Shown: one piece after another, positions 3,589 through 63,915 of the stretch | Numbering within the stretch: the stretch's first letter is position 1 | Layout: each line of letters starts with the position of its first letter | Origin: Lysobacterales bacterium | GTDB lineage: Bacteria > Pseudomonadota > Gammaproteobacteria > Xanthomonadales > SZUA-5 | Assembly: GCA_022844165.1 (NCBI GenBank) | Contig: JALHMH010000007.1 | Location: forward strand, 75,841-139,840 | Direction: 5' to 3' | DNA: 64,000 nt | Position numbers and translations under genes: made by a program | The notes under the pieces: model-generated | What the model saw: the letters and a program-made list of their open reading frames with translations, nothing else | What the model was told of the DNA's origin: nothing | Database searches by the model: none

Positions 3589-6306
3589 TTACTCCGGTTG
3601 CACCGGCGCCACGATGCCGAAGATGCGATTGGCTTGCGGTTGATGATCGCCCGGGGTGTTGTCGGTGAGCGGGAAAACCACGCGATTACCGGAAATGACG
3701 GCACCGCTCACCGTTTGCCAGGCGATGGTTGTGCTGTCGCCCACCACTGTTGGGCCATAGCGCCGCAGCTGCCAGCCGCTGCCCGAGAACTCATAGCCGT
3801 GATAGATGATTTCAGCCAGCGCATACGGACAATTCTGAAACTCGAACTGCAACGGCAGTCGCCCCTGAACGAATCCCGTGTCGTCCAGTACCGTTTCGCT
3901 GCTCAGTGAGGCAACGTTGACAATTTGTGTGCAGGCTGTGCCGCTCTTTTCCTGACCGGGGTTCAGCTGAATATCGCTGAGCGTACCTTGTTGTGCTTCG
4001 CCTTTGTCCTCTGTATCGAAGACGAAACTCGCCACGCCACTTTGCTCAGCATCGACGATACCGTCGCCATTGCCATCTCCGCCGTTCGGTGCAGAAGACT
4101 CGGTGGCATTCGAAGCGCCATCGAGGTCGCTGTCTGCGTGTTGCGTCGATCGCATGGTTCCGCCGGCCGTTCCCGTGTGCACGGTCGGCGTACCGTCGGC
4201 TGCATATGAGACCGCCAGACCAGCGCCGCCAACGGCAGGCGAACCAACGCCAGTGGGCATCCAGGACAGGCCACCGTTGTCGCTGCGGTACACGCCACCT
4301 GGCGCGGCATCTTTTCCGGCGACGCTGGCATAGATGCGCTGGCGGTTCTGAGGATCGGCTTGCAGTGCGAGGACTTCCGTGCCCGAGATGCCGTTGTCTT
4401 GACGCGTCCATCGCAGTCCGCCGTCATCGCTGCGGTAGATGCGGGCCTGGCCCGGCTGGCTGGGATCGGACATGCCGACAAACACGCGCCCGTCGACGAC
4501 GACCAGCGCGGAGACGTCCCAAACAGCACCGGTGCCGCTCATCCTGGGTAGTCCTTCGGTGGCCTCCGTAAACCGTCCGTTGTGGGCGACGAACACCCCG
4601 TTCGAGCCGATGGGTAGCGCATCTGCGCAGCTGGCGCAGTAGCCGTTGGCGCGTGTACCGACGAATATCTGACCGGGTTTGCCGATGGCAATTGCTGTCG
4701 GAGTCGGCGCATACGTGCCGGGTGTGCAGGCGCCAACGGGTAGCGTATCGAATGGTTGCCATGAAGCGGCGGCATCAACGCTGCGCCAGACGCGCGGCAC
4801 TTTGAGCCCGGCCTGCCCTTGGTCACATTGGATGCGGCCATCCGCCGCAAAGTAGAGCACCTGCGCAACACCCTGTTTGACCGATGCGGTGTCGACAACG
4901 AGCGAGCGCACCTGCCCCAGTTGCGCCGCGCCACCGGTGGGCATCGGCACGAGGCGATCTGCAGCGGACCAGCTGCGACCGCTGTCGCTGCTCACAAAGA
5001 CGCCTCCGCGATAGCTCGACTGCGGCATCCCCAGCGGCGCAAAGTCGGCGCCAACGGCATACACGCGGACATTCATTGGCGACAGCGCGTTGCCGGGGTC
5101 GTATACCAGCGCATTGATCGTATCGAGCCCCAGATCTGAATTCGATCGAAACCAGGTGAGGCCGTTGTCCTCTGACCGATAAAGCGCCGGCAGTGTCGGC
5201 CCTGCGCGATCATTGCGCACGCCCGCAAGCAGAATCGAGCCGTGCGGCGGCTGCGCGGCGATCGCGGCGATTGGCGTACTGCGAGGCCCGCCGCCGACAT
5301 TCGTCCATTGCCGATCGGTACTTCCTGCAACAAGCACACCCTCTGCAGAGAACGCGACCCATCGGTTGTGACGCGAATCGATCAGAACTTCGCCGATGGC
5401 TTGTGTGCCCGAGCCACGCTGCGTGACGAAGCTGGTACCGCCGTCCTGACTCTGCGCAACGCCTTCGGTCGTGCCGAACAACAACCGCTGACTATCCAGC
5501 GGATCCGAGGCGAGGCTTTGCAGACGCGCCGTACCCAACTGTGGTGTCAGATCCTCAAAGGCGCTGCCGCCATTCGGCGACCGATAGCTGCCGAAAGCAC
5601 CGGAGAGGAAAAACTGGCCAACAACGTTGGCATTAAACGCGAACAGTTCGGCCCGCGCTGCGCCGTCGGCATCCCACGGACCTGCCACCGGCGAAAACCG
5701 CGCGCCACCGTCGGTACTCAGATACAAGCTTGCGGGGTGGTTCTTCAGATTGCGCTCACCGGCCCACACCAGGACACGGCGGCTGTTATTTGGGTCCACC
5801 GCAACCCGCTCGATGCGCTCGGGCAACTGCGTGTTCGCGACGCGCGTCCAGCGCTCGCCGGCATCGTCGCTGCGCCACAATCCGGCACGGGTCGCCAACC
5901 AGAGCTGGTTCGATGCGCTCGCGGCGTAGGCAATGTCCAGAGTCGCAAAACCCGGCGCGGTTGTTGGTAAGCCAACGCTCTTGCTGCGCCAGTTGCGTCC
6001 GCCATCGACAGAGATGAACGCACCGCCGGCGCCGGCCAGTGCCAGGATTTGTGCTCGATTCGGATGCGCAACGATGCGCAGCGCACCCGGCAGCGCCGAG
6101 GTCAGTCCGGCAGATGCGCTATGCCAGGTGGTGCCACCATCCATCGACTTGTAGATGAATCGGTCGGCGCTTGCGTAAATAGCGCCATCGCTCACCGTGG
6201 CGCTGTCGATACGTCCGCCTTCGGGTCCGTGCGAGGTCCAGCGCAGATCAGAAGCGTGCGCCTGGAGGCCGATCATCATAGAGAGGCAGAGTGCATTGGT
6301 TTTCAT
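3589..6306 (-). CDS. Secreted BNR/Asp-box beta-propeller protein with a C-terminal choice-of-anchor-U-like domain
   Basis: Signal peptide MKTNALCLSMMIGLQAHA; many S-x-D-x-G-x-x-W repeats; C-terminal DGNGDGIVDAEQSGVASF...RRYGPT...LTDN.PGD. Confidence 0.75.
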   Translation of the reverse strand: MKTNALCLSMMIGLQAHASDLRWTSHGPEGGRIDSATVSDGAIYASADRFIYKSMDGGTTWHSASAGLTSALPGALRIVAHPNRAQILALAGAGGAFISVDGGRNWRSKSVGLPTTAPGFATLDIAYAASASNQLWLATRAGLWRSDDAGERWTRVANTQLPERIERVAVDPNNSRRVLVWAGERNLKNHPASLYLSTDGGARFSPVAGPWDADGAARAELFAFNANVVGQFFLSGAFGSYRSPNGGSAFEDLTPQLGTARLQSLASDPLDSQRLLFGTTEGVAQSQDGGTSFVTQRGSGTQAIGEVLIDSRHNRWVAFSAEGVLVAGSTDRQWTNVGGGPRSTPIAAIAAQPPHGSILLAGVRNDRAGPTLPALYRSEDNGLTWFRSNSDLGLDTINALVYDPGNALSPMNVRVYAVGADFAPLGMPQSSYRGGVFVSSDSGRSWSAADRLVPMPTGGAAQLGQVRSLVVDTASVKQGVAQVLYFAADGRIQCDQGQAGLKVPRVWRSVDAAASWQPFDTLPVGACTPGTYAPTPTAIAIGKPGQIFVGTRANGYCASCADALPIGSNGVFVAHNGRFTEATEGLPRMSGTGAVWDVSALVVVDGRVFVGMSDPSQPGQARIYRSDDGGLRWTRQDNGISGTEVLALQADPQNRQRIYASVAGKDAAPGGVYRSDNGGLSWMPTGVGSPAVGGAGLAVSYAADGTPTVHTGTAGGTMRSTQHADSDLDGASNATESSAPNGGDGNGDGIVDAEQSGVASFVFDTEDKGEAQQGTLSDIQLNPGQEKSGTACTQIVNVASLSSETVLDDTGFVQGRLPLQFEFQNCPYALAEIIYHGYEFSGSGWQLRRYGPTVVGDSTTIAWQTVSGAVISGNRVVFPLTDNTPGDHQPQANRIFGIVAPVQPE

Positions 6307-12747: not shown

Positions 12748-13808
12748 CAGTGCATTGCCTCCAAAAAAAGTTCCGCTGGATGGCGGACTGCAACATCGAG
12801 TTTTGCCGCAAGAAGACGTTCGCGCAAGTGCTGTGCGCAACCGACGTTCGTCGTCACCAGAGTGCTGACAGCCAATTGCCTCAGCTCATCGATGATCGGC
12901 GCCGCGAGTCGATCGGCCAACGCCGTATGGGATAACACATTCGGCCCGGCAGCGCCGCAACAGCCAAGACCTCGCAGCGGCGAAATCGTCATACCCATGG
13001 CCCCCAGCAGCGTCGGCGCCGCACTTGCCGCATGCGAGCACGGCGTCCACAACGCGACGTGCAACGGTACTGCATGAATTCGTAATCGCCAACGCGCTGT
13101 GTCTTTCATCATCCATGCGCACCATTCATCGACCTGATGCCCGGCGCTGCGCAAGCTCTGGATGCAGCCACTGTCCAGGGCGATCAGGCGTTGCGGCTGG
13201 GTCTGCGCAGGTGGATCAAAACCCAGGTGACGATCAAGCGCACCGCAGCATGGCAAGAGCGCAGCTGTGATCGGCGCGCCGAGGCGCTCTGCGATGCTAA
13301 GTACTGCGCGCTGCGCCGACGCCTCCAGCGTGCGCGCAAGGCAGCCAACATAAAGTTGCGTCTTCTCGGGCCCGCCGGGCACCACCGGCACCGGCGGTCC
13401 AACACGCTCCAGCCATCGCCCTTCGCGCGCCGGCACACAACCGCGCACACTCGCGGCAGCTTGAAGCGCGCGCGACAGGCCACCCGGCGCCCGCACCATT
13501 CGGCGCAACAAGCGAAGCCGCCAGGGCAAGCGGGATCTGGGCAAGCGCCGCGCCGTTCGTTCAATGATCTCGCCGTACTCGACGCCGGCCGGACAGACCG
13601 TCTCGCAGCGGCGGCACTGCAGGCAGCTGTCGAGCGACTCGATCGTGCTGTCATCGACCGGTACGCCGATTTCGATCCGCTTCGCCAACGCGATTCGTCC
13701 ACGCGGCGACTGCGTTTCCAGTCCGGAGACTGCAAACGTCGGACAATGCGGCAAACACAAACCACACATGACACAGCGGTCGGCGAGCGCTGCAAGACTT
13801 TCGCTCAT
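12747..13808 (-). CDS. GlcF/HdrD-like Fe-S protein (2x 4Fe-4S plus CCG domains)
   Basis: CVMCGLCLPHCPT, SPRGRI, CLQCRRCETVCP, CCGA twice; stop overlaps the coq7 start. Confidence 0.85.
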   Translation of the reverse strand: MSESLAALADRCVMCGLCLPHCPTFAVSGLETQSPRGRIALAKRIEIGVPVDDSTIESLDSCLQCRRCETVCPAGVEYGEIIERTARRLPRSRLPWRLRLLRRMVRAPGGLSRALQAAASVRGCVPAREGRWLERVGPPVPVVPGGPEKTQLYVGCLARTLEASAQRAVLSIAERLGAPITAALLPCCGALDRHLGFDPPAQTQPQRLIALDSGCIQSLRSAGHQVDEWCAWMMKDTARWRLRIHAVPLHVALWTPCSHAASAAPTLLGAMGMTISPLRGLGCCGAAGPNVLSHTALADRLAAPIIDELRQLAVSTLVTTNVGCAQHLRERLLAAKLDVAVRHPAELFLEAMH

Positions 13809-14020
13809 CCTGATCGCCGCTCGCCTTGCCGGCTCCATGCACCTCCGGAATGGCCTTTCAAAGCCAAAATGAATTCAACGCGACAGAACCGCAGTGTCTC
13901 ATTGTCGACCGCTGGTTGCCGCTCATCTTGGAAGCCGAACGCGCTGGATCTCTCAGGCGCCCACTGCAAGTGCTTGCCGCCGCTGACATCCCACGGCAGT
14001 CGATTGAACAACAATGGCAT
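13805..14020 (-). CDS. Possible 71-aa hypothetical protein
   Basis: ATG start; its TGA overlaps the ATG of the Fe-S gene (ATGA); no family recognised. Confidence 0.3.
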   Translation of the reverse strand: MPLLFNRLPWDVSGGKHLQWAPERSSAFGFQDERQPAVDNETLRFCRVEFILALKGHSGGAWSRQGERRSG

Positions 14021-14183
14021 GTGCGAGCACAGGATTGAGCGGGAACGGTAGTCTACGGGTCAGAACGGCAAGCGTTTTGTGAACCGCAACTGCCGGCTTG
14101 CAGCAATTTAGACTTGCAGACTAGCCTTCAGACCCTCTACACTCTCCGGCTCTTTGAAAGTCTAGGTCCATGGAGTGGTCCAC

Positions 14184-14612
14184 ATGAAAACGGTCAGCGC
14201 TAAGCCGGAAACCGTAAAACGCGATTGGTTCCTGGTCGATGCCTCGGGCAAGACGCTCGGCCGCCTGTGCACGGAACTCGCGCGTCGTTTGCGCGGAAAG
14301 CACAAAGCGATCTACACGCCGCACATCGATACGGGCGATTTCCTCGTCGTCGTGAATGCCGAAAAAATTGCCGTCACCGGCAACAAGCTCAACGACAAGC
14401 TCTATCACCGCACCACAGGTTACATTGGTAATCTGAAGACGGTCTCGTTGAAGAACATGTTGGCTGACCATCCCGAACGTGCGATCGAAATCGCCGTCAA
14501 GGGCATGTTGCCGAAGGGCCCGCTGGGCCGCGATATGTATCGTAAGCTCAGAGTTTACAAAGGCTCCGAGCATCCGCACGCCGCGCAGCAGCCGGCCGTA
14601 CTCGACATCTGA
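14184..14612 (+). CDS. rplM: 50S ribosomal protein L13
   Basis: [41 protein letters not shown]. Confidence 0.98.
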
Positions 14613-14626
14613 TTTAGGACGCACCC

Positions 14627-15019
14627 ATGGCTTCGACGCAACATTACGGCACCGGCCGCCGCAAATCTTCCGCCGCGCGCGTGTTTCTGCGCCCAGGCAA
14701 AGGCCAGATCACAGTGAACGAGAAGTCGCTTGACCAGTTTTTTGGTCGTGAGACGGCACGAATGGTGGTGCGTCAGCCCCTGGAGCTGACCAATCTCGCC
14801 GAGCGATTCGACATCCTGGTGACCGTTGCTGGCGGCGGCATGACCGGTCAGGCTGGCGCCATTCGCTTAGGCATCTCCCGGGCGCTCGTCGAATACGATG
14901 AGAATCTGAAAAGCGATCTGCGCAAAGCTGGCTTCCTGACGCGTGACGCCCGCGAAGTTGAGCGCAAGAAAGTCGGTTTGCACAAAGCCCGTCGCGCGAC
15001 CCAATACAGCAAGCGCTAA
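14627..15019 (+). CDS. rpsI: 30S ribosomal protein S9
   Basis: [40 protein letters not shown]. Confidence 0.98.
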
Positions 15020-15070
15020 TCGCACTTGCCCGATCCACCCGTGTCGCCCGCGGGTGCATCGCAGCGACAT

Positions 15071-15144
15071 TGGGGGATCGTTCAACGGTAGGACAACGGA
15101 CTCTGACTCCGTTTATCTAGGTTCGAATCCTAGTCCCCCAGCCA
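15071..15144 (+). tRNA. tRNA-Gln (anticodon CTG)
   Basis: Acceptor TGGGGGA/TCCCCCA+GCCA; anticodon arm ACGGA-CTCTGAC-TCCGT; T-arm CTAGG-TTCGAAT-CCTAG; 74 nt. Confidence 0.96.
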
Positions 15145-15768
15145 AAAACATGGCCGCCGCAAGGCGGCCATCTTTTTTGGCTGGGGGACTGGGTGAGAAC
15201 CTATGAGGTTCGACTCGGAGCGCAGGATGCGCGGAGAGCGCGAGCGAAGCGAGGCCAAAGGCCGCGGGCCATGGATGGCCCGCGCAATCCTGGTCCGCCA
15301 GCCAAAAACATGGCCGCCGCAAGGCGGCCATCTTTTTTGGCTGGGGGACTGGGTGAGAACCTATCAGGTTCGACTCGGAGTGCGGGATGCGCGGAGAGCG
15401 CGAGCGAAGGCGAGGCCAAAGGCCGCGGGCCATGGATGGCCCGCGCAATCCTAGTCCCCCAGCCAAAAACATGGCCGCCGCAAGGCGGCCATCTTTTTTG
15501 GCTGGGGGACTGGGTGAGAACCTATCAGGTTCGACTCGGAGCGCAGGATGCGCGGAGAGCGCGAGCGAAGGCGAGGCCAAAGGCCGCGGGCCATGGATGG
15601 CCCGCGCAATCCTGGTCCCCCGGCCAAAACATGCCGCCGCAAGGCGGCCATGGATGGCCCGCGCAATCCTGGTCCCCCAGCCAAAAACATGGCCGCCGCA
15701 AGGCGGCCATCGACGGCACAGCGCGCGCCCTGATGCGCTGCCTCGCCCCAGCCAAAAACATGGCCGCA
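15126..15768 (+). repeat. tRNA-Gln-linked tandem array: 3 full 160-161-bp units and 3 truncated units
   Basis: AATCCT(A/G)GTCCCCCAGCCA (1-2 mismatches) starts at 15126, 15286, 15447, 15608, 15665; partial copy ~15746. Full units also contain the inverted tRNA end TGGCTGGGGGACTGGG. Confidence 0.93.
15150..15178 (+). terminator. Intrinsic terminator after tRNA-Gln, repeated in each full array unit
   Basis: ATGGCCGCC-GCAA-GGCGGCCAT then CTTTTTT. Confidence 0.75.
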
Positions 15769-15773
15769 ACTGA

Positions 15774-18700
15774 TCAGGGTTCCGTTCGTCGCCGCGGATC
15801 CAGGCCCTCTGCATCGATCACGCGATTCTCGCGAAGCAGGTCGTAGATCAGATCGGTGAGTGCGGCCATGGCCTGTCTATCGGATTTGAGCATTAGTGTC
15901 GCCAGCTTTTGGTGTGATGTCAGCGCGCGCACCACGCCCTGTTGCACGGCGCCGGGCAGGTTGCCCCTGAGCGCCTGGTCTCGTGAGTTGTTCTCCACTT
16001 GAGCGACCACCACATCGTTCTCCTTGGCGATCGCCGCGATGTGGTTGACGAACATCGCCTGATCTCGTAACGGCGTAGCCTCTCCGAATAGCCGGTTAAG
16101 GCGGTTGATGATCTCCATCAGGTAGTCAGGCTGGTCATCCCGTACCTCGCCCCCTGGGCCGATTGGCTTCAATTTGGGTGGCTCAGTGCCGGACTTCTTG
16201 GCCGGTTCAGTCGACTTGATCTCGAAGCCCGTCAGTAAAATTCCATCCAGGTCGACATTGTCCGGCGTCACGCCCCTCAGCCGCTTGGTCAATAGGCGCG
16301 CGAAGGCAGTGAAGTTCTCCAGCTCCGGGTCACCAAAGTCGATAATCTGCGCAATGTACGCGTAACTTCGGCAGAAGCGCCCCAATCCGCTCTTGAACCC
16401 AAGCAGCGCGCTCAGCTGTTCGCTGTAAGCCTTACGTTGATGATCGGCCGACTTGGACGCCGCTTCATCCCCGCGCTGGCGGGCAGCCTCGTAGCTCGCC
16501 TCCCATTCGGCAACGGTGTCTGACAAAGCCTTGACCCGCTCGTTGAACTGGCGCGTGGTCCGCTCGGTCGCCGCGTACAGCGCCTTGTGCCGTGCATCTT
16601 CCTTCTTGGTCACGTCGCCGACGGTCTGAAAGCGCGCCTGCTTGAACCGTTCCAGATCCACTGACGCATAAAGGTCGTGCGCGTCAAGTTGTTCCTTGAT
16701 CTGGTAGACCACGTTCGGATCCTGCACATCCTCGATTGCGGCACCGTCATCGTATTTCGCGAACGCGCGGCGAACGCTGACCGGATCGTTGATGAAGTCC
16801 ACTACGAAGGTGTCGTCTTTGCCCGGCGCCGTGCGGTTCAGGCGCGACAGGGTCTGCACAATCTCGACGTCGTTGGCGATCTTTTTGTCCAGGTACATGG
16901 CGACCAGCTTGGGCTGATCGAAGCCGGTCTGAAACTTGTCGGCGACCAGCATCACCCGGTACTCCGGTCGCTCGAAGGTGGCCGCCAGGTCATGACTGTC
17001 GGCACCCGGATTCATGCTGGCCTCGGTGAACTCTGCCTTGTCGTCAACCACGAAGGTGTCGCCAGCGATGCGCTGATCGGCGGCGTGCGTGATCTGCTTG
17101 CCGGTCAGCTTGCCGGAAAAGGCCACCAGTGAGCGGATGCCGGCGTATTGCGGATGGCGCTCGATGTAGCGATCGAAACCGATCTTGTAGCGCACCGCGG
17201 CCGCGCGTGAACTGGTTATCACCATCGCCTTGGCCTTGCCGTCCAGGCGATTGCTGACGTTGCGGCTGAAGTGCTCGATGATGAATTGCACCTTCTGGGT
17301 GACATTGGTCGGGTGCAAGCTCATCCACTGCGCCAGCGCCCGCTTGGCTTGTCGTCCGCTGACGCGCTTGGCGTCCTCGACCTGCTTCGCCAGATTGAAA
17401 GCCGTCTGGTACGGCGTGTAGCCGCGCAGCACGTCCAGGATGAAACCCTCATCGATCGCCTGCCGCATCGGGTACTTGTGGAAAGCAACCGGTGGGTGTT
17501 CCTTGCTGCGTTTGTGGCCGTCCACAGGGCGCCCGAACAGCATGTACGTCGAGTGCTTGGGCGTCGCGGTGAAGGCAAAGTGGCTTAGATTCTTCGGTCG
17601 TAGTCGCGATTGCTGCAGCTTTTCCAGCAGTTCCTCGATGGTCAGTCCGGCGATTCCCCCTTCGCCGCCCAACGCCAGCGCGGCTTGCAGCTTGGTGGCG
17701 CTGGTGCCCGTCTGCGAAGCATGCGCTTCGTCGATGATCACCGCGAAATTGCGGTTCTTCAGGCCGTGCTCGGTGACGATGGCCTCCATCGCATACGGGA
17801 AGGTCTGGATGGTGACCACGATGATCGGCGTGCCCGCCAGCAAAGCCTCAGCCAGTTGCTTGCTCTTGGATTGAGAGGACTTCTGGCGGTCAATCGCCGC
17901 GATCACGCCGAAGCGGTGGTCGATCTGTTTGACTGCGTCCTGCAACTGGCCGTCGAGTACCGTGCGGTCGGTCACGATGACTACGCTGTTAAAGATGGCC
18001 TCGCCATCGTCGCGGCGCAGCTTGATCAGATCGTGCGCAGTCCAGGCGATGGTGCTGGTCTTGCCGGAGCCGGCGCTGTGTTCGCACAGGTACTGCATGC
18101 CGGGGCCGTTGGCCTTGGCATCGGCTACCATCGCGTTCACGGCCGACCATTGGTGGAATCGCGGGAAGATCAGCGTCTCGCGACGGGACCAGTTGCCTTT
18201 CAGGTCCACCACGTCCTTCTTCTCGGTGTAGACAAAGCTGTGAAAGATGCGCAGCCAGGCGTCGCGCTGGCAGATGTCTTCCCAGAAGTAGGCCACCGGG
18301 TACTCGCCATCCTCGCGCGGCGGATTGCCGGCCCGACCCTTGTGGCCACGGTTGAAGGGTAGGAACAAGGTGTTGTCGCCATCCAGCTTGGTGGTCATCC
18401 GGATATCGGAGTCCGACATCGCAAAGTGGACACGGCGCCGCGCTTGAAGGTCAGCAGGGGCTCGCGCCGACGCGTCTTGGCATCGACTGGCAGTCGGTCG
18501 GACTTATACTGGGCCATCGCCGCATCGGCGGACCGTGTGAAATCGGTCTTGAGCTCGACCGTGGCCACCGGAATGCCGTTGATGAAAAACACCAGGTCGA
18601 TGGCCAGCGTGCGCGACGGGTGGTACTGCAATTGCGGCACCACGCGCAGCCGGTTCGCCGCGTAGCTCTCTTTGACCTTGGCGTTGCGCTGGTCTTCGGG

Positions 18701-19024
18701 CACAGCCTCAGACATCTCGATATGTCCGCAACCCGCCAGCGAGAATCCGCGCCGCAGCAGGTGGATGGTGCCGTCCTTGTCCAGTGCCTGTGCCAGTCGC
18801 TCCAGCAGCGTCTCGCGCGCAAGCGCCGGGTCGCCATGGTTCGCCTTCAGCAGGCGCTGCCAGCGCTCCTTCTGACTGTCCTGCAGCCAGCCCAGCACAT
18901 CCTCGGGGTAAAGCGCGCGCTCGGTGTCGTAGTCCTGCGTGGTACCCACCAGCCAGCCCTGATCGCGCAGGCGCGCCAGCACATAGGCTTCGAAGTGCCT
19001 TTCCCGGTGATCTCGGTCATTCAT
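15774..19024 (-). pseudogene. hsdR: Type I restriction subunit R, split by a 1-nt deletion (real lesion or sequencing error)
   Basis: N-part IDLVFFINGIPVATVELK; C-part HSAGSGKT, DEAH, FTATPK, KFQTGFDQP. Adding one base at 18430/18431 restores KRGAVVHFAMSDSDIRMTT. Confidence 0.88.
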
Positions 19025-19158
19025 TGGGGTGCCTCGTTGGACCTGTCATCTGCGTGACGCGCCACAAAGAATCGCTCATACCACTCGCCAAGGCGCTTAC
19101 CGGCCTGGCGGATCAATCCCGCGAGTGCGGCGTCGTCTACGGCGCAGAAGGTGTTCAC
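19021..19158 (-). CDS. 45-aa mini-ORF coupled to both neighbours, probably an internally deleted gene
   Basis: GTG overlaps the GIY-YIG stop (GTGA) and TGA overlaps the hsdR ATG (ATGA): MNTFCAVDDAALAGLIRQAGKRLGEWYERFFVARHADDRSNEAPQ. Confidence 0.5.
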   Translation of the reverse strand: MNTFCAVDDAALAGLIRQAGKRLGEWYERFFVARHADDRSNEAPQ

Positions 19159-20063
19159 AATGCGTCTCCCGCTGCCTTCGCGAGTTGGTCAGCTTCCCAG
19201 TCCTTGTAGGTCTTCGGGGAATTCTTCAGTCGCCAGTCCAACGTCCCGTTGGCCGGGCGACCCTTCACCGCTGCGGCGGCTGCGCTCGGGCTCTTGAATG
19301 CATAGTTGGTGGTGAACACGCAGTGCGTCGTTCGTGGTTCCAGAACTCCCATGCGGAGCAGTTCGGCATGCGGTTTGGCGTAAGCGTGGTCAGCAGGCCC
19401 GGTCCACGCAAGGCGCGCTTGCGAGCCGGCCTGCACGATGAACTCGCCACCCTCAAGAATGGCCGCAGCGGCGATTCCGTACTTGCGATCGCTCAGCTCG
19501 AACTCGGGACTGCCGCTGGCCGCCGACACGTGAAGTGCTGGCGTGTTGGGTCGCTTGTTGCTGATGAAGAGATCAATCCGAAGCGCAGGAAGCACCATCA
19601 GCACGTTTTCGAGAAAGGCCTCCATGTTGGCCTGCGCAGCTTCGCTTAAGCCAGGGCGCGCAGGCGTGTTGCCGTTCTCCAGCGGCACGCGCCCCACGGC
19701 GCGCGCCTCCTCGACCAGACGTGCTTCCAGGTAGCGCACATGCGCCTTGTTGAGGACGTTCGCGGCCGAAGTGACCAGTACCGCGGCAGTCCACCAGTCC
19801 TTCTGCCCGTCGTGGTTGCGCATGCGGGCACTGATGTCCTCGGCCTCGCCGATGTAGGCGAGAGGAAGACCGTCGCGCTCACCGATCAGCAGATAGACGC
19901 CGGTGTAGCGCGCCTCCTTCCGAGCCAGCGCGTCGCTGATCTGCGTGCGCGGCACCATGAGCAGGTGACCGGTCCAATTGAAGACCTCGGCGGTCAGCAT
20001 GCCATCCGGGCGACCGTCGATGAAATACAGCTCCAGCGAGCGACCTTTGGTCTGATGGCTCAT
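19155..20063 (-). CDS. GIY-YIG nuclease-family protein with C-terminal DUF4357-like domain
   Basis: TGVYLLIG..AYIGE..R..H..KDWW, LNKAHVRYLE, C-terminal FKSPSAAAAAVKGRPANGTLDW. Confidence 0.85.
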   Translation of the reverse strand: MSHQTKGRSLELYFIDGRPDGMLTAEVFNWTGHLLMVPRTQISDALARKEARYTGVYLLIGERDGLPLAYIGEAEDISARMRNHDGQKDWWTAAVLVTSAANVLNKAHVRYLEARLVEEARAVGRVPLENGNTPARPGLSEAAQANMEAFLENVLMVLPALRIDLFISNKRPNTPALHVSAASGSPEFELSDRKYGIAAAAILEGGEFIVQAGSQARLAWTGPADHAYAKPHAELLRMGVLEPRTTHCVFTTNYAFKSPSAAAAAVKGRPANGTLDWRLKNSPKTYKDWEADQLAKAAGDAL

Positions 20064-21299
20064 GCGACCTCCCGCAGATCGATCTGGCCGGTGACGGCGG
20101 CGGTGATCAGGGCGGAGCGGCGTTCTGACCGCAGTATTAGGCTGCGCTCGGTGGCCGCCATGATTGCGTCGAATCGCTTCGTGCTCAGTGCAATGTGCTC
20201 AAGTATTTGGCGCTGCTCGGCAAGCGGCGGCAGGCACAGCCGGAGATCGCGGAATTCGTCCCAGTAGAGGCGCATGCGGAAGTCCGCGATTCCGCGCGAA
20301 TGGCGTCGCATCTCCTCGATGGCCATGGGCGTCCGCAGCAGGTGCTCGATGTAGGCAGTTTCAACAGGCACCATCGGAGAGGCGACGACGTAGGCAGGAC
20401 TGACGAGTCCGTGGACAGATACGGCGCCGACCGCGCCCTGCCAGGCGAGCATCATGTTGTACGCGATGTCGCCGGGCTCGACGCGCTTGTACTTGGTGCG
20501 GTCCTCGCTAAGCCAGACGCGCCTATCACGGTCATCCTGATCCATTTCCTCATCGCTGATGCCGTCGTGGATCGAGATTGACAGCACTGGCAAGGAGGCA
20601 TCGCCGGTACGAATCGCTTCCCGATAGACATGGGCGACGCGCCTGACTTCCCAATGTTTGGGGATTGACTCTATCCAGTTGACGCCGGAGTCCTTCATCG
20701 ACGCATCCGCATCGAGACCCTTGGTGACCGCGTGCGTGATCAGCGCCTGGCGCTTTTCCTTCAGCAGTTCGATGAAGCGTGCCTTTTTGGCGATCAGCGC
20801 GTCGATACGGGCGGTCTCGCGGTCAAGAGCGCCGGCAATCTCGCGTTGCTCCACTCGGGACGGTGCCGCTATCGGATTCGATGCCAAGGCCTCCTGCGTC
20901 ATGGATGGGAGCGCAGTGTTGGTTGAGTAGAGACCGAACGGGATGGCTGACGCCGAATAAAACAGGAAGCGCGCATCGGCATTGGCGTTGATCTGCGTGT
21001 AGAACATTGTGTCCACAGTCCAAAATCGGCCGTTGACGTACACAGGTCGGTCAATGGTGCCCTTCCGACCCAGCAGAACCGATTCGCCTTCGAATAGGTA
21101 GCTGTCGGCACGGGCGAACTCGCCACCGGAGCCGAACACCGGATACTCACCCTCTGGGTTCTCAACCAGTTTGTGATCGCGGCCATTGCAGATCGTGGCC
21201 AGGCGCTTCATGGCACATACAGCCCAATGGCGAGGGACGACGCCGAGCCACTCAACCCCGGATTCTTTGTGCGCCGGGATACTGTTTGTAGCGACTCAT
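20060..21299 (-). pseudogene. hsdS: Type I RM specificity subunit S with a 1-nt insertion near the N-terminus
   Basis: Two TRDs; conserved EQ..I...LD.ETARID.LI..K..LLKEKRQALITHAVTKG and ERRSALITAAVTGQID. ATG 21299 is coupled to the abi stop; removing one base from GGG 21276-21278 gives [19 protein letters not shown]. Confidence 0.85.
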
Positions 21300-22216
21300 G
21301 CGCCAGCCCCTGAGTTTGCGGGGTCGGCCCACAACGGAGGCGCCTTCCAATTCGTCGGGAAGCCCATTGCTGCGGTGTCGACTTCATACCCATCGATCAA
21401 CGCGATCAACCGCTGCCGCCAACGGTGCGCAGGTGCGATCACGTCCATCAGGTACAACAACATCAGCAGCGTGTTGTAGAGCTTGTGCGAGTCCGGCACA
21501 AACTGCCCACGGAGCACCGCGGGTTTGCTGCGAGGCGCCTGCGGTCGCACAGTGAAATCGCGATTCCAGAAGCGCGCGTGGTGGGCGCAGGTGTTACGCA
21601 CCACGGTCAGATGGTGCAGCCAGGACTGCAGGACCGCCTCGTCCACGCCGTAGGGTGCAGCGATGCGGCGGCGCGTCGGCATCGGCTGCAGATTGCTGTA
21701 CCAGTGCGACAACAATCCCAGTGACATCACCTCACAGACGGCCCAGACCGGCGGCAACGGCTCCTGGTAGGTATCGCGCAAATGGCGAATGAAGGTCTCG
21801 TCGGACCGCGTCACTTCGTCCGTCAGCTGCGCCAGTTGGCGCTGATGCCAGTCGTCCCGATAAGCGATGCTGCGGTCCAGATGCGCGTGACTGCCATGGC
21901 AATGCGCCAACTGGTAGGCCCACTGTGTACGCACCGACACTTCGATGCGTTCGATGGCATCCATCACCAGAAGACGCAGTTCGCGATCGAAGATGTAGAG
22001 ATTCAGCACATCCTCAAAGCGCGTGCCCGGTTTGAAGGTGTGCGTGGCGTGATCCGCCTCGAAGGGCAGCCAGTAGGCGCAGAGCCGGTAGTAATTCAGG
22101 TGCCGGAGGTAGAACTCGGCTTGCGCGGGATCGGCGATCAGCATGCCGCGGCTCTGCAGCAGGGCGACCTGCGCGGTCAGCGTGAGCGCTGGCTTGGTGA
22201 AGGGCAGCTTGCTCAT
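21296..22216 (-). CDS. Abi_2/AbiF-family HEPN ribonuclease
   Basis: [54 protein letters not shown] motif RNTCAH (Rx4H). Confidence 0.88.
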
Positions 22217-22254
22217 GGGCGTTGCCCACGGCCGCCAGGGCGCGCGAATGCGGA

Positions 22255-22321
22255 CCCCAGAAAAGAGAAACCCGCCGGTTTGAGGGTGCCCTTGCGGGTA
22301 GAGCCTTGGCGGGTATTGTTG
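22255..22321 (-). ncRNA. Candidate abiF-associated structured RNA (putative antitoxin or cis-regulator)
   Basis: Minus strand: ACCCGCC...CCC-GCAA-GGG...GGCGGGT then TTCTCTTTTCT, between a promoter and the abi ATG. Confidence 0.65.
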
Positions 22322-22327
22322 CCCGCA

Positions 22328-22356
22328 AGTCTAGCCGGGACTGCCTGGACCGACAA
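22328..22356 (-). promoter_or_regulatory. Sigma70-type internal promoter for the RNA + abiF unit
   Basis: TTGTCG-17 nt-TAGACT on the minus strand. Confidence 0.65.
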
Positions 22357-22397
22357 GCCGCCGGCGCGCGCTGATGCGTTGCCCATGCGGCCACGGT

Positions 22398-24416
22398 TCA
22401 TTGGGTCACCTCGCCCAACAGCGCCGCGATCTCGGCTTCCACGGCCTTGAGTTCGGCATCGATCTCCGCCAGCGGACGCGGCGGCTGGTATTTGTAGAAG
22501 TAGCGGTTGAAATTGATTTCAAAGCCCACACGGCCAGGCTCGCCATCCTTGTCGTCGCAAAAGCTCGCATCGATCCAGGCATCGGGCACGTGCGGCAGCA
22601 CCTCGCGCGCCAGATAGTCCTGCGGCAGCTCGCCGAGCGGCACGTTCTCGTAGTCGGTCAGTTCTGGATCGGCCATCACCGTGCCGTCGGCCGCACGGAC
22701 CACCTCTCCCGCCGGATCGCGCACGCCCAGCGCGTTGATCAGTGCCTTGACGAAGGACTTGCCGACCTTGCCGATGATCGGGTTGCGCTCGGCCGTCAGC
22801 GCGGCAAAGGCTGCCGCCCACTCGAAGGCGCGGATACAGTCGTGATGCGCAGTCAGCGCCGCTTCCCACGCCGCGCGCTGCTCGTCGGTCAGCGCTAACC
22901 AGGCCTTTTCCTCACGCAGTTTCGCCAGCGTTGCGTCACTGACCTGCAGGGTCATGCGCAGAGGCCGCAGGACCTTGATGCGGCGATAACCGAAGCGGCG
23001 GTAGTCGAGCATCCGGCTGAGTTCGTGGTCACCGCCCTCGGCGTAGATGCCAGCAATTTGAGTGATCTGGTCCTCGCTGACACGCCGCCGCTTGTTGCCC
23101 TCATTGCGCATCGGGGACCAAAGGCTGGTGGCGTTGATCAGCTGTACGTGGTTCCGCCGGTTGCCGGGCTTCTTGTTGGACAAAATCCACAAATAGGTGC
23201 CGATACCGGTGCGGAAGAAGATCTCGGTGGGCAGCGCGATGATGGCGTCGACCAGATCCTGCTCCAGCAGCCACCGGCGGATCTCGGATTCGCCGGAACC
23301 GGCGCCACCGTTGAACAGCGGCGAGCCCGACAGCACGATCGCCGCGCGACCACCTCCCTTCTCGCGTCGTTCCAGCTTGCTGGCCAGGTGCAGCAGGAAC
23401 AGCATCGAGCCATCGTTAATACGCGGCAGACCGGGGCCGAAGCGGCCGTAATAGCCCTTCTCTCGATGCTCCTTGTTGACGGCCGCCGCGTCCTTTTCCC
23501 ATTTCTTGCCGAAGGGCGGATTGGACAGGCAGTAGTGAAAGCGCTCGCCGGCGAACTGATCATTGGACAGCGTGCTGCCGAGCTTGATGTTCCGGGACAG
23601 GTCGCGACCAGGGTCCGTCGGCAGCTGGCGCAGCAACATGCCGGTCAGGCACACCGCGTGCGTTTCCGGTTCCAGCTCCTGCCCGTACGGCACCAGAACG
23701 GGCGGCACACGCGTGCGATTGCCATAGTTGGCGACATGGTCCATCGCATCGGACAGAAACCCTCCGGTGCCGCAGGTGGGGTCGTACAGCGTGCGGATCA
23801 GACCGGGGTTGGCCTCGAACAGCGCATCGTCCGGGTCCAGCAGCAGCGTGGTTGCCAGATGCACCACGTCGCGTGGCGTCATGAAGTCCTCTGCCCCTTC
23901 GTTGACCTCGGCGCCAAAGCGTCGGATCAGGTGTTCGTACAAATTGCTCATCACCCGGTCAGGCACGACGTCGGGGTGCAGATCGATGCCGGCGAAGTTG
24001 CGGCAGATCCGGAACAGCACGTTCGCCTTGTCCAGGCGCACCAGCGTGTTTTCGATGTCGAACTGCTCGAAGATCACTCGCGCGTTGTCCGAAAACTGCA
24101 CGATGTAGTCCTGCAGGTTCTGCCGCGTCTTGCCGTCACCCAGCGTGTCCAGCGTGTACTGCGAGACGTTGTAGAAGGGATAGCGCGTGATCTGGCGCAG
24201 GATCAGGTCAAGGTCGATGCCGCTGTCCTTGTACTGCGCGGTCGCTTCCCGAACCGCATCCCGCGTAGGCTCCAGCACGCATTCCAGGCGACGCAGCAGG
24301 GTGAACGGCAAGATGATCTTGCCAAAGTCCGTGTGCTTGAAATCGCCCCACAGGTCCTCGGCGTTCTTCCAGATGAAGTCCGCCAAGGACGCGCCAGTTC
24401 CGCCCGCTTGTGCCAT
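22398..24416 (-). CDS. hsdM: Type I RM m6A methyltransferase subunit M
   Basis: ILPFTLLRRL, TPRDVV, DPTCGTGGFL, NPPF, EINFNRYFY; intact. Confidence 0.95.
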   Translation of the reverse strand: MAQAGGTGASLADFIWKNAEDLWGDFKHTDFGKIILPFTLLRRLECVLEPTRDAVREATAQYKDSGIDLDLILRQITRYPFYNVSQYTLDTLGDGKTRQNLQDYIVQFSDNARVIFEQFDIENTLVRLDKANVLFRICRNFAGIDLHPDVVPDRVMSNLYEHLIRRFGAEVNEGAEDFMTPRDVVHLATTLLLDPDDALFEANPGLIRTLYDPTCGTGGFLSDAMDHVANYGNRTRVPPVLVPYGQELEPETHAVCLTGMLLRQLPTDPGRDLSRNIKLGSTLSNDQFAGERFHYCLSNPPFGKKWEKDAAAVNKEHREKGYYGRFGPGLPRINDGSMLFLLHLASKLERREKGGGRAAIVLSGSPLFNGGAGSGESEIRRWLLEQDLVDAIIALPTEIFFRTGIGTYLWILSNKKPGNRRNHVQLINATSLWSPMRNEGNKRRRVSEDQITQIAGIYAEGGDHELSRMLDYRRFGYRRIKVLRPLRMTLQVSDATLAKLREEKAWLALTDEQRAAWEAALTAHHDCIRAFEWAAAFAALTAERNPIIGKVGKSFVKALINALGVRDPAGEVVRAADGTVMADPELTDYENVPLGELPQDYLAREVLPHVPDAWIDASFCDDKDGEPGRVGFEINFNRYFYKYQPPRPLAEIDAELKAVEAEIAALLGEVTQ

Positions 24417-24455
24417 TCCATGCCCCTGCATCGATCGCATAGGGTGAGCCTAACA

Positions 24456-24664
24456 GCAGAATACTTTGAAGGCTGGCCTGGATATGGTCGCCGAGCGCGC
24501 AAACGAAGGCCGCGGGCCGTGGACCGGCGCTCACACGCCAATAGGCGAGACGACCGGCGGCTGCGCTGCCGGGCCGGAAATGCGCGAAGCGCGCGGGGTT
24601 GTGGCAAGTACGCTGCAGAGCGAAGCCAACTATGCTAGGGCGGTCTGAGGCGAAGCTTCGCTAG
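24456..24664. mobile_element. Non-coding miniature element (family C), homologous to 62639-62889
   Basis: 24526-24664 aligns by eye with the 62.7-62.9 kb copy (CGACCGGCGGCTG..GCCGGGCCGGAAATGCGCG..GTGGCAAGTACG..GCGAAGCCAAC..GGCGGTCTGAGGCGAAGC.TCGCTAG); left end approximate. Confidence 0.7.
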
Positions 24665-24673
24665 AGATCGGTC

Positions 24674-25564
24674 ATGCACATCCGTAAAGAGAACCTTGAG
24701 GGCGCGCAGGTTCAGGCTCTTCTTCGAGAGCATCTGGCCTCGATGGAGCACACGGCGCCGCCGGAAAGTCGCCACGCTTTGGATCTGTCGGGGTTGCGTG
24801 ACCCTGCTGTCACGTTTTGGAGCATCTGGGACGGTGAGACATTGGCCGGGTTCGGCGCACTCAAGCATCTGACCGCAGAGCACGCTGAAATCAAGTCCAT
24901 GCGCACTGCGGCGCCGTATCTTCGCCGCGGAGTGGCATCGCGCATGTTAGATCATCTCATCACTGAAGCAGCCAATCGTGGCTACACCAGAATCAGTCTT
25001 GAAACCGGTTCGATGGCATTCTTCGAACCTGCGCGCCGCCTTTACGAATCCTTCGGCTTCGTTCAGTGCCAACCATTCGCCAATTACCGACCAGACCCCA
25101 ACAGCACATTCATGACGCTTGACGGGTTATCGCCCAATTCCGGCGTCACCCGGATCAACCAGAAATCTCGGAGTTCGTGTATGACCAGACAGCTCATCAG
25201 CTCGGGCTCAACATTTGAGCAGGAGATTGGCTATTCCCGTGCAGTCGTAGATGGCAACTGGATTTTTGTCTCAGGAACGACCGGCTTTGACTACTCCACC
25301 ATGACGATCTCAGACAGTTTGACTGAACAGACGGAGCAATGCCTCAGGAACATTGAGGCAGCGCTGCATCAAGCCGGGTCAAGCCTCAAAGATGTGGTGC
25401 GTGTCACGTATGTCTTACCCAATGGTGCAGATTTTCCGCAATGCTGGCCGATCCTTCGCCAGTACTTCGGCGAGGTACGTCCAGCCGCAATGATGATCTC
25501 CGCGGGGTTAGCCGATCCTCGAATGCGCATTGAAATGGAGGTCACCGCACTAAAGCAGTCGTAG
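24674..25564 (+). CDS. GNAT acetyltransferase (YedL/YsnE-like) running in frame into a RidA/YjgF domain
   Basis: EIKSMRT..RRGVA..LETG (GNAT); second domain MTRQLISSGSTFEQEIGYSRAVVDG..RPAA..IEMEVTA has its own ATG (25181) and GGAG SD. Confidence 0.8.
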   Translation: MHIRKENLEGAQVQALLREHLASMEHTAPPESRHALDLSGLRDPAVTFWSIWDGETLAGFGALKHLTAEHAEIKSMRTAAPYLRRGVASRMLDHLITEAANRGYTRISLETGSMAFFEPARRLYESFGFVQCQPFANYRPDPNSTFMTLDGLSPNSGVTRINQKSRSSCMTRQLISSGSTFEQEIGYSRAVVDGNWIFVSGTTGFDYSTMTISDSLTEQTEQCLRNIEAALHQAGSSLKDVVRVTYVLPNGADFPQCWPILRQYFGEVRPAAMMISAGLADPRMRIEMEVTALKQS

Positions 25565-36488: not shown

Positions 36489-36564
36489 ACGAAGAATCCC
36501 TAGCGCAATGTTCCGATCAGCCAGGGCATCGATATCGCCAGCACGTGGCCACTGCGCCGCCCCT

Positions 36565-36637
36565 CCTGCTATCGACTCCGACATCGCAACGTGTTGCACG
36601 TTGCCAGAGGGGCCCGCAGTCGATCCGCCAAATTATG
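36565..36637 (-). promoter_or_regulatory. Structured leader of the TerC gene (candidate terC-motif cis-regulatory RNA) with extended -10 box
   Basis: TGcCATAAT, then outer stem ATCGACT/AGTCGAT enclosing CGGGCCCC and the perfect hairpin GCAACGTG-CAA-CACGTTGC-GATGTCGG. Confidence 0.5.
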
Positions 36638-63792: not shown

Positions 63793-63915
63793 CACCGCAC
63801 ACTCGTGAGTCGCGCTACGGCGCGACGCTTTTATCTGTTCCCACGGCGCACCGCACACTTGTGGGTCGCGCTACAGCACGACGCTTTTATCTGTTCCCGT
63901 CGGTTATCTGTTCCC
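63793..63915 (+). repeat. Two 56-bp direct repeats with REP-like palindromes, plus an extra TTATCTGTTCCC
   Basis: CACCGCACACT at 63793 and 63849; GTGAGTCGCGC-TACG-GCGCGAC and GTGGGTCGCGCT-AC-AGCACGAC. Confidence 0.7.

Follow-up and report, generated by a model that had tools for sequence, protein, structure and literature searches.

The gene for tRNA-Gln(CTG) and the repeat array that begins in it come after the rplM-rpsI operon (14175..15019, + strand) in the window, i.e., the whole 64-kb stretch of DNA that was analysed. The genes around the array are:

14175-14612, + strand: rplM (Pfam Ribosomal_L13, 1.1e-44)
14627-15019, + strand: rpsI (Pfam Ribosomal_S9, 6.9e-50)
15071-15144, + strand: tRNA-Gln(CTG) with encoded CCA (ARAGORN; Rfam tRNA, 62 bits)
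15774..24440, - strand: type I R-M operon (Pfam), neighbour of the array and outside the repeat
15774-18419 and 18395-19024, - strand: hsdR (Pfam), split over two overlapping ORFs
19155-20063, - strand: DUF4357 gene of the R-M operon (Pfam)
20060-21211, - strand: hsdS of the R-M operon (Pfam)
21296-22216, - strand: Abi_2 gene of the R-M operon (Pfam)
22398-24440, - strand: hsdM of the R-M operon (Pfam)

This tRNA is the sole one called by ARAGORN across the 64-kb window. At the locus both ARAGORN and Rfam tRNA called only 15071-15144, and the array units, recognised by neither, were rejected as tRNA genes or pseudogenes. No sigma-70-like promoter was found within 14000-16500.

In the array, three full units of 160-161 bp are followed by one that has lost 104 bp, then by a partial unit and, last, by a fragment of 22 nt:

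15126-15285, + strand: unit 1, 160 nt, in register
15286-15446, + strand: unit 2, 161 nt, in register
15447-15607, + strand: unit 3, 161 nt, in register
15608-15664, + strand: unit 4, shortened to 57 nt (sequence in register, period-57 row of TRF)
15665-15710, + strand: partial unit (direct copy and terminator hairpin) in the decayed array end
15711-15745, + strand: 35 nt of unrelated sequence in the decayed array end
15746-15767, + strand: 22-nt fragment (tRNA end and start of the terminator), the final copy

TRF reported a period of 161 with 3.3 copies, 96% matches and a score of 982 at 15126-15651, and a second row with a period of 57 at 15589-15717 that is due to the shortened units. Each unit runs from the tRNA's final 19 nt through a bidirectional terminator and an inverted tRNA 3' end to five small hairpins. 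This anatomy, with its direct and inverted copies of the tRNA end, had been proposed by the sequence-only reading and was borne out by the in-register units and by the matches to AATCCTAGTCCCCCAGCCA and GGCTGGGGGACTGGG. The same holds for its claim that unit 4 was deleted between two GGCCAT microhomologies: when the sequence was read in register, both breakpoints of the 104-bp deletion followed GGCCAT. Unit 4 also carries two 1-nt deletions, one in the A run and one in the terminator stem.

The array starts within tRNA-Gln at A58, so that the first direct copy (15126-15144) is the tRNA's own last 19 nt. This 19-nt end, AATCCTAGTCCCCCAGCCA, searched with A or G permitted at position 7, had five matches on the + strand with at most one mismatch, all within 15126-15683, while five matches were reached in 0 of 100 shuffles. 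The four downstream copies agree with the tRNA at 19, 18, 17 and 17 of the 19 positions. The tRNA's 10-nt end occurs three times on the + strand and three times inverted, and is confined to the array; no tRNA-end copy was found outside 15126-15767 in the 64-kb window. Inverted copies, GGCTGGGGGACTGGG, occupy 15179-15193, 15339-15353 and 15500-15514. Moreover a 27-nt core motif is present in three copies, a count reached by none of 100 shuffles.

Such features are those of tRNA-linked repeats (TLRs; Egan and Landy 1978; Rudd 1999; both as cited in PMC8144298), which sit in tRNA or rRNA operons just downstream of a stable-RNA gene at 1-5 units per locus, and whose hallmark is a terminal stretch of 18-19 bp that repeats exactly how the tRNA or rRNA before it ends on its 3' side (PMC8144298). 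The array has the position, the copied end (17-19 of 19 nt) and the number of units per locus of TLRs. In E. coli 22 TLRs are distributed over ten loci, 5S rRNA loci among them; TLRs would be co-transcribed with the upstream gene and then processed out, and although described as early as 1978 they lack an assigned function (PMC8144298). An RtT sRNA has been annotated, and is expressed, in Thioalkalivibrio (PMC8092127). In the literature covered, accounts of TLR- or RtT-like repeats beyond PMC8144298 and an editorial were incidental mentions; the latest version of PMC10542128 mentions neither TLRs nor RtT.

The terminators of the array, to which no single strand is assigned, are:

15150..15178: bidirectional intrinsic terminator 1 (9-bp hairpin at 15150-15171, A5 before and T6 after)
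15310-15338 and 15471-15499: terminator modules 2 and 3, matching the terminator 1 module
15633-15648: degenerate terminator copy (terminator scan)
15689-15710: terminator-like hairpin lacking a + strand T tract (terminator scan)

The hairpins are of 9 bp, with seven of the nine pairs G-C and a loop of 4, and are flanked by an A5 run on the 5' side and a T6 run on the 3' side. The terminator scan returned 13 sites on both strands, against 2.3 +/- 1.4 in shuffles. A strong terminator ahead of every module argues for low module expression.

The three modules behind these terminators are:

15179..15304, + strand: TLR module 1 (inverted end 15179-15203; direct end 15286-15304, 17/19 vs the tRNA)
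15339..15465, + strand: TLR module 2 (inverted end 15339-15363; direct end 15447-15465, 19/19 vs the tRNA)
15500..15626, + strand: TLR module 3 (inverted end 15500-15524; direct end 15608-15626, 17/19 vs the tRNA)

Folding energies were -74.0, -74.5 and -74.1 kcal/mol for modules 1, 2 and 3 (z -5.9, -6.0 and -4.7 respectively), and the minimum-energy folds of the isolated units consist of a closing helix and five hairpins. The closing helix (14-15 bp; 15/15 paired in module 2) is a copy of two parts of tRNA-Gln, its 7-bp acceptor stem and the T-stem 3' strand, and terminates with GCCA. It reproduces exactly the CCA as well as U1-A72, G2-C71, G3-C70 and G73, which we take to be the acceptor identity elements of GlnRS. 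Thus the acceptor-stem part of the tRNA mimic that had been read from the sequence stands, as a closing helix of acceptor-stem and T strands, while its split T arm does not: in the favoured fold AGGTTC and GAACCT form a local hairpin and the T arm is not rebuilt. Base pairs also form between the 5' flank and G73, C74 and C75. When the array is folded as a whole, its minimum-energy structure (-386.3 kcal/mol) pairs each inverted copy with the direct copy upstream of it, across the terminator, and the competing 86-nt hairpin has -68.8 kcal/mol; the RtT-like fold would therefore require prior cleavage or kinetic control.

The closed multi-hairpin topology, with helix strands that match the local tRNA, recurs in the Tyr and Arg TLRs of E. 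coli and in an Arg TLR of Thalassolituus; of the 15 closing-helix positions, 14-15 are paired in the array, 11 in Thalassolituus and 8-10 in E. coli. Over 16 distinct rows (alignment A3) 95.8% of the cells of the shared fold were paired, a count biased upward by the fitting of A3 to the model's structure. Both sides had changed in 19 of the 33 pairs, compared with 0 of 500 shuffles reaching that number and 2-4 pairs in slid controls; in the closing helix such changes may stem from tRNA copying and not from selection at the RNA level. Six distinct stem substitutions were read among the array copies, five of them transitions that leave a + strand G-U pair and one that breaks a pair, a pattern that speaks for the RtT-type reading. 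A MAFFT alignment of all units (A1) was set aside, as it misaligned GGTTCGA.

The relation to RtT was then assessed with structure models and sequence profiles. Rfam RtT (RF00391) aligned over its full length (1-130) with all three units, at 26.7, 26.9 and 26.9 bits (E 0.040-0.046), and its consensus fold, i.e., a closing helix, a series of hairpins and a 3' tail ending in CCA, is that of the array units. These scores are below the gathering cut-off of 45 bits (no match in the gathering-threshold run), and because of this such units are missed by automatic annotation; RtT units of E. coli score 133-137 bits. A structure model built from eight enteric RtT units (R1), with which 125,225 bases were searched, gave seven matches. 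The array modules 1, 2 and 3 scored 27.2, 28.2 and 30.9 bits (E roughly 3.5e-6 to 3.1e-5), module 3 being the top match of the ~125 kb searched; TLRs of the E. coli arg operon scored 29.3, 26.2 and 21.4 bits, and a Thalassolituus unit 13.7 bits (E 0.11). R1 had no further match in the 64-kb window beyond the three array units, and neither Rfam RtT nor R1 had an RtT-like match in the gln tRNA operon of E. coli.

At the sequence level the likeness does not extend beyond the 5' module (GGRTGAGAAsC..GGTTCGAyTCG(G)AGCG..GAGAGCG), and the universal T arm accounts for a large part of that module. A sequence-only HMM from nine enteric units matched the array (E 0.013 and 0.047), and the reverse HMM matched the E. 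coli tyrT locus, which had not been chosen by pattern (E 0.0076). On the other hand, an HMM of the enteric core only (GGTTCGA to AATCC) matched the E. coli arg TLRs (E 2.9e-6 to 1.1e-4) and had no match in the array, its best match in the window lying elsewhere (E 1.8); the array core downstream of the scan pattern had no match better than E 1.4. As far as profiles can tell, these negatives argue against deep sequence homology with the enteric cores.

Among known systems, the closest relative of the array appears to be the set of TLRs at E. coli tyrT/tyrV (RtT RNA, rttR, RF00391), as indicated by Rfam RtT, R1 and the shared fold; the analogy to tyrT drawn from the sequence was apt. Both have: i) units in tandem that immediately follow a tRNA gene; ii) an end that is the tRNA's last 19 nt from AATCC, with the inverted end at the 5' side; iii) an inverted T-loop with the identical TC-to-GA change (GGRTGAGAA); iv) GGTTCGA followed by CTCG(G)AGCG..GAGAGCG; and v) a closing helix around five hairpins. 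They differ in the partner tRNA (Tyr, not Gln), in the E. coli unit of ~178 bp without an internal terminator, in the closing helix (8-10/15 vs 14-15/15) and in the 3' half of the core, where similarity is not detectable. The serV-argVYZQ TLRs of E. coli likewise join a 19-nt end and its inverted copy in a 13-14-bp closing helix round small hairpins (z -4.5), and their R1 scores (21-29 bits) are in a range comparable to that of the array (27-31 bits). Unlike the array they are without the GAACC..GGTTCGA hairpin module, and they share their 3' core with RtT (E about 3e-6), which the array units do not. The AATCC boundary of the copied end is common to the array and to the Tyr and Arg TLRs. In the TLRs of rrnA, rrnB and rrnD (RrA, RrB, RrF) a stable-RNA 3' end, terminator 1, a TLR that closes with a copy of this 3' end, and terminator 2 follow one another (PMC8144298), and the array repeats this layout, a likeness by published description, sequences apart. 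Those TLRs differ from the array in being linked to 5S rRNA and single-copy, with reported binding of Hfq and CsrA via GGA motifs; they are transcribed by read-through, and their 3' end maps beside the repeated sequence (PMC8144298).

Representative genomes were scanned with a degenerate core pattern built to skip most enteric RtT copies. Eight loci were found, against a chance expectation of ~15 by our own arithmetic (no tool), and two of them (Thalassolituus and Leclercia) were linked to a tRNA; the other six had no tRNA beside the match and look like chance. In Thalassolituus sp. UBA1087 two units lie directly behind tRNA-Ser-Arg-Arg and both of their ends match tRNA-Arg. They share with the array the 5' module GGATGAGAACC..GGTTCGACTCGGAG..AGAGCGCG and, in unit 1, the order of the hairpins, and differ from it in their partner, tRNA-Arg(ACG), in the lack of a strong terminator inside the units, in the truncated 3' end of unit 1 and in about 75 extra nt in unit 2. 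The sequence E value of 1.8e-4 is biased, since it was the search pattern that selected this locus, and its core downstream of the pattern was not matched by the array-core profile. In Leclercia the 5' part of tRNA-Tyr is fused to a TLR core exactly at GGTTCGA (R1 95.4 bits), which shows recombination at that common sequence. Ends that track the neighbouring RNA, as expected from the sequence, were seen for tRNA-Arg in Thalassolituus, and are the TLR hallmark in E. coli (PMC8144298). Whichever tRNA lies next to the unit (Gln, Arg or Tyr), both strands of the helix mirror it.

We therefore read the array as RtT-type TLRs, first seen behind E. coli tyrT, that are attached here to tRNA-Gln of an uncultured gammaproteobacterium resembling Xanthomonadales, with a probability of about 0.78. 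It is a further example of an old TLR class, a distant relative, and no new kind of element. By analogy to what was published for the rrn-linked TLRs, the modules would be made only upon read-through of the operon terminator by RNA polymerase. The recreated tRNA 3' end could then let tRNA-processing enzymes excise them, RNase E and exonucleases acting on the 3' side and possibly RNase P before U15182, which would yield RNAs of about 123 nt. Unequal recombination between units, or slippage, probably makes the array expand and contract, and the GGCCAT deletion of 104 bp would be one such event; amplification in place, as claimed from the sequence, was judged correct. The ends may stay matched because the tRNA gene converts the direct copies, and because selection or template switching acts on the inverted copy.

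The occurrence of the TLR design behind tRNA-Gln in a distant gammaproteobacterium of high G+C, and also in Thalassolituus behind tRNA-Arg, shows that it is old or recurrent. The array thereby offers comparative material on how the ends stay matched and on whether the fold is selected, and its unusually complete acceptor mimic makes a good in vitro substrate for RNase P, RNase E and GlnRS.

Alternatively, the array could be a non-autonomous mobile element, both ends of which are copied from the tRNA it lands behind and which is then amplified in place, a view we regard as unlikely. It would account for a common 5' module behind tRNA-Gln (array), tRNA-Arg (Thalassolituus) and tRNA-Tyr (enterics) with helix strands matching each. 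Moreover the E. coli TLRs are spread over ten loci (PMC8144298), and the Tyr and Arg TLRs have a common core; shared cores at different loci imply that cores moved between loci at some time. However, no copy of the array core was found outside the array within the 64 kb, either by motif search or by blastn, so that the dispersed copies of a MITE (which go with terminal inverted repeats and target duplications) are missing there. None of 48 ORFs (19 + 29, scanned with Pfam at E<=1e-5) encodes an integrase, transposase or reverse transcriptase, in keeping with the earlier statement that no integrase or transposase is nearby, and neither plasmids nor phages nor E. coli genomes were matched by the array units in blastn. 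Only two of the eight core-pattern loci in representative genomes were tRNA-linked, and tandem duplication with gene conversion accounts for the array without mobility. The non-autonomous element with templated termini proposed by the sequence-only reading was not borne out here.

A more far-reaching version, which strikes us as improbable too, would make TLRs structured RNA modules of the Gammaproteobacteria at large that can move between stable-RNA genes and re-copy both strands of the closing helix from the 3' end of a new host RNA. The array version would have gone furthest, as its acceptor/T minihelix of tRNA-Gln is complete, G73 and CCA included; tRNA-processing enzymes would excise it as an acceptor-end mimic that is charged, or that titrates enzymes or toxins of the tRNA-Gln end. 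If so, the 18-19-nt copied end from position 58 would reflect the copying mechanism and not chance.

Quite improbable in our estimate is a working acceptor mimic of tRNA-Gln, i.e., a CCA-ended RNA, released by processing, that would be charged or would bind or titrate acceptor-end enzymes or toxins. The identity pairs, G73 and CCA of the closing helix speak for it, as does a mimicry far more complete in the array than in E. coli (8-10/15). The G-U pattern of the stem substitutions among array copies also fits selection on a + strand RNA. But the anticodon and D arms are absent, neither ARAGORN nor Rfam tRNA calls the units, and a strong terminator precedes every module. The CCA would moreover be hidden unless cut, since the 5' flank pairs with G73 and C74-C75, and according to PMC8144298 the tRNA-linked TLRs of E. 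coli have no known phenotype.

tRNA 3' ends are frequent integration sites, and the array could be composed of att-site scars from repeated integration and excision of islands at tRNA-Gln, with the R-M operon as the latest arrival. The operon adjoins the last 22-nt copy, and on its far side lies a possible core remnant:

24506..24530, + strand: candidate TLR-core remnant, aligning to unit positions 15580-15607

When 1954 segments of 240 nt were drawn at random from the window, 5 reached its local alignment score of 33; its blastn E value was 0.21 (64 kb searched). Yet there is no integrase in the 48 ORFs and no tRNA-end copy beyond the island, which leaves an integrative island at the tRNA (att duplication) rejected as a candidate; near-identical 161-bp tandem units with an internal fold common to E. 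coli TLRs are likewise unexpected for scars. We hold this origin to be very unlikely. An assembly artefact or a protein-coding repeat is the least credible origin of all: long ORFs do cross the array (15193-15846, + strand, 217 aa; 15113-15814, - strand, 233 aa) and the start of the + strand ORF corresponds to the ATG of E. coli tpr, but open frames are expected at 64% G+C, the period of 160-161 is not divisible by 3 so that the frame changes between successive units, and the units vary at specific sites and in length (160 vs 161), which argues for real, distinct copies.

The R-M operon may have been inserted beside or within the array of TLRs, and its G+C profile was not distinct from the surroundings. 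The connection to a defence islet drawn by the sequence-only reading was not upheld, as nothing ties the array functionally to the R-M genes; what looks like a tRNA-derived mobile element by a defence island can prove to be an ordinary array of TLRs beside which an R-M operon was inserted. As a by-product, the array would place three + strand and 4-5 - strand terminators between the convergent r-protein/tRNA and R-M operons.

The tandem array behind tRNA-Gln is a real feature and a new member of the tRNA-linked repeat (TLR) class. The sole tRNA gene in the window, tRNA-Gln(CTG) at 15071-15144, starts 51 nt downstream of rplM-rpsI, in a region (14000-16500) that yielded no promoter-like site. 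The repeat begins within the tRNA at position 58 and has a period of 160-161 bp (TRF: 3.3 copies, 96% matches, score 982). The array and the operon that adjoins it are composed as follows:

15126-15285, full unit 1, in register
15286-15446, full unit 2, in register
15447-15607, full unit 3, in register
15608-15664, shortened unit of 57 nt, in register
15665-15710, partial unit, then 35 unrelated nt
15746-15767, final 22-nt copy
15774-24440, minus strand, type I R-M operon (hsdM, Abi_2, hsdS, DUF4357, hsdR)

Each full unit opens with AATCCTAGTCCCCCAGCCA, which is the last 19 nt of tRNA-Gln, followed by a 9-bp hairpin rich in G+C that has an A5 run before it and a T6 run behind it. Next comes GGCTGGGGGACTGGGTGAGAACCTA, which repeats the final ~25 nt of the tRNA in inverted orientation but with three differences in the T-loop portion, and then (T)CAGGTTCGA and ~75 nt of small hairpins. 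The 57-nt unit equals a full unit less 104 bp, with GGCCAT preceding both breakpoints. Motif counts in the array were far above chance (0/100 shuffles in each test), and terminators were present on both strands (13 sites vs 2.3 +/- 1.4 in shuffles). Thus the motif counts, the unit register and the GGCCAT deletion bore out in every detail the anatomy proposed in the sequence-only reading, i.e., an array in which each unit carries the tRNA-Gln end twice, once direct and once inverted.

In a permissive Rfam search of 13000-18000, RtT (RF00391), which in E. coli is released from the tyrT operon, aligned end to end (1-130) with all three full units, at scores (26.7-26.9 bits, E ~0.04) below the curated 45 bits. 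[quoted passage not shown] The three rrn-linked TLRs lie between two terminators and are produced by read-through, cleavage beside the repeated end being thought likely; the tRNA-linked ones are not known to have a function (PMC8144298).

Two E. coli loci, tyrT (L001) and serV-argVYZQ (L011), served for comparison. The tyrT units are laid out like those of the window. They have an inverted T arm (GGATGAGAAGC or GGGTGAGAACC) with the TC-to-GA change also seen in the window, then a short loop, AAGGTTCGA, CTCGAGCG..GAGAGCG and hairpins, and they finish with AATCC and the tRNA-Tyr end. In the arg units the inverted copy pairs with the direct copy as a closure, as in the window units, and the copied end begins with an identical AATCC in Tyr, Arg and Gln units. 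Since the E. coli tyrT and arg units share both copies, having the host tRNA end in both direct and inverted form is a general TLR property and not peculiar to the window locus. What is new in the window TLRs is the lineage (judged by GuaA, the nearest named relatives of the source genome were Xanthomonadales, Arenimonas and Silanimonas, at 73-78% identity) and the tRNA, and what is distinctive is a terminator in each unit and an unusually complete acceptor mimic. Automatic annotation would miss the array.

A 217-codon open frame runs through the array (15193-15846, plus strand), starting at the GTG of GGGTGAGAA, which matches the ATG position of the E. coli tpr (protamine-like) ORF within RtT. 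As the unit length is no multiple of 3, the frame was taken as non-coding.

The strength of the similarity was measured with a structure model (R1) built from eight enteric RtT units (four from E. coli and four of the six from Leclercia, one duplicate and one hybrid being excluded). Over 125,225 bases (the window plus nine loci), R1 gave seven matches, with E-values that are rough under a shortened calibration: the three window units (30.9, 28.2 and 27.2 bits; E 3.5e-6 to 3.1e-5), three E. coli arg TLRs (29.3, 26.2 and 21.4 bits; E 9.3e-6 to 1e-3) and one Thalassolituus unit (13.7 bits; E 0.11). Across the window nothing matched besides the three units. The window units are therefore about as RtT-like as the recognised TLRs that E. 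coli has behind another tRNA. The fold covaries: among 17 aligned matches (16 distinct rows), in an alignment fitted to the model, a procedure that favours pairing, 95.8% of cells were paired and 19/33 pairs carried changes on both sides (reached by 0/500 shuffles), while sliding the partners by 1-3 columns left just 2-4 such pairs.

Sequence-only tests of relatedness were weaker than the structure model. An HMM of the enteric units matched the array at E 0.013 and 0.047, and the E. coli tyrT locus, chosen independently, was matched by the window HMM at E 0.0076. With a profile of just the enteric core (the part between GGTTCGA and AATCC), the arg TLRs were matched (E ~3e-6) and the array not at all; the window core beyond the scan pattern had a best match of E 1.4, its three best matches (E at least 1.4) sitting within RtT units at the corresponding position. 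We conclude that architecture, fold and 5' module are common to the window array and TLRs, a claim that does not extend to the 3' core.

The expectation that the core would also lie behind other tRNAs with matching ends held at the family level (Gln, Arg and Tyr). A degenerate core pattern found eight loci in representative genomes, two tRNA-linked and six with no adjacent tRNA. Leclercia has an RtT array at tyrT/tyrV that includes an apparent hybrid, at ~4958-5098 of the L. adecarboxylata locus (L010), whose assembly likely contains homopolymer errors. In it the 5' two-thirds of a tRNA-Tyr gives way to a TLR core precisely at GGTTCGA; this apparent tRNA-Tyr with a long T-loop insertion scored 95.4 bits with R1 and drew no ARAGORN call. 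In Thalassolituus sp. UBA1087 (L005, 183-569, minus strand), two TLR units directly follow tRNA-Ser(GCT)-Arg(ACG)-Arg(ACG), an operon of the same type as E. coli serV-argVYZQ, and both helix strands match tRNA-Arg. Unit 1 resembles a window unit; unit 2 is similar in its 3' part to the core of the arg and tyr TLRs of E. coli. An RtT sRNA is reported as annotated and expressed in Thioalkalivibrio (PMC8092127); databases thus already contain RtT-like elements from outside the enterics.

The isolated module (inverted copy, hairpin core and direct copy; 126-127 nt) folds at ~-74 kcal/mol (z -4.7 to -6.0) into a 14-15-bp closing helix plus five hairpins, the topology of the enteric consensus. The closing helix comprises the 7-bp acceptor stem and the 5 bp of the T stem of tRNA-Gln and extends across G73 and C74-C75; 14-15 of its 15 positions are paired in the window (Thalassolituus, 11; E. 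coli, 8-10). The module fold does not restore the proposed split T arm: AGGTTC pairs locally with GAACCT. In a competing fold, the tRNA end, terminator and inverted copy form an 86-nt hairpin (-68.8 kcal/mol), and the whole-array minimum-energy fold uses these upstream pairings throughout; which of the two forms will be set by the sequence in which transcription and cleavage take place. Of six distinct stem substitutions among the window copies, five are transitions leaving G-U pairs on the plus strand and one breaks a pair, which lends modest support to selection on a plus-strand RNA.

A mechanism may be proposed as follows. Read-through of the operon terminator would yield modules, and RNase P, whose minimal substrate is an acceptor/T minihelix with CCA, might cleave before U15182. 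Modules would be released because the copied tRNA end recreates a 3' processing site, as proposed for RrB (PMC8144298). Unequal recombination or slippage would alter array size, while gene conversion from the tRNA could keep the ends matched, with selection or template switching acting on the inverted copy. A side effect of the array might be insulation of the r-protein/tRNA and R-M operons, which are convergent.

The type I R-M operon directly adjoins the array, the hsdR stop codon lying 6 nt from the last 22-nt copy. It is flanked by the decayed array end on the left and, on the right, by a 25-nt segment (24506-24530, 66 nt past the hsdM start) that can be aligned to the unit's last hairpin (5/1954 random segments scored as high). 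These two flanks suggest that the operon may have inserted into a formerly longer array. Its G+C content is not distinct, and none of 48 ORFs scanned in the window encodes an integrase, transposase or reverse transcriptase, as the sequence-only reading had stated for the first two. Within the operon, hsdR (15774-19024, minus strand) is read as two ORFs overlapping by 25 nt: 18395-19024, with HSDR_N, and 15774-18419, with the helicase and T1R domains. The gene is thus either frameshifted or split.

Elsewhere in the window, a single ORF (24674-25564, plus strand) encodes a GNAT acetyltransferase domain and, after it, a RidA/L-PSP domain; since there is an internal ATG near 25182, these are more likely two neighbouring genes than a fusion. 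A terC RNA motif (RF03067; 36569-36625, minus strand; 53 bits, above the cut-off) is situated upstream of the gene for a TerC-family membrane protein (35442-36599), and a 56-bp tandem repeat (63793-63898; 1.9 copies, 92% matches) is located close to the window end.
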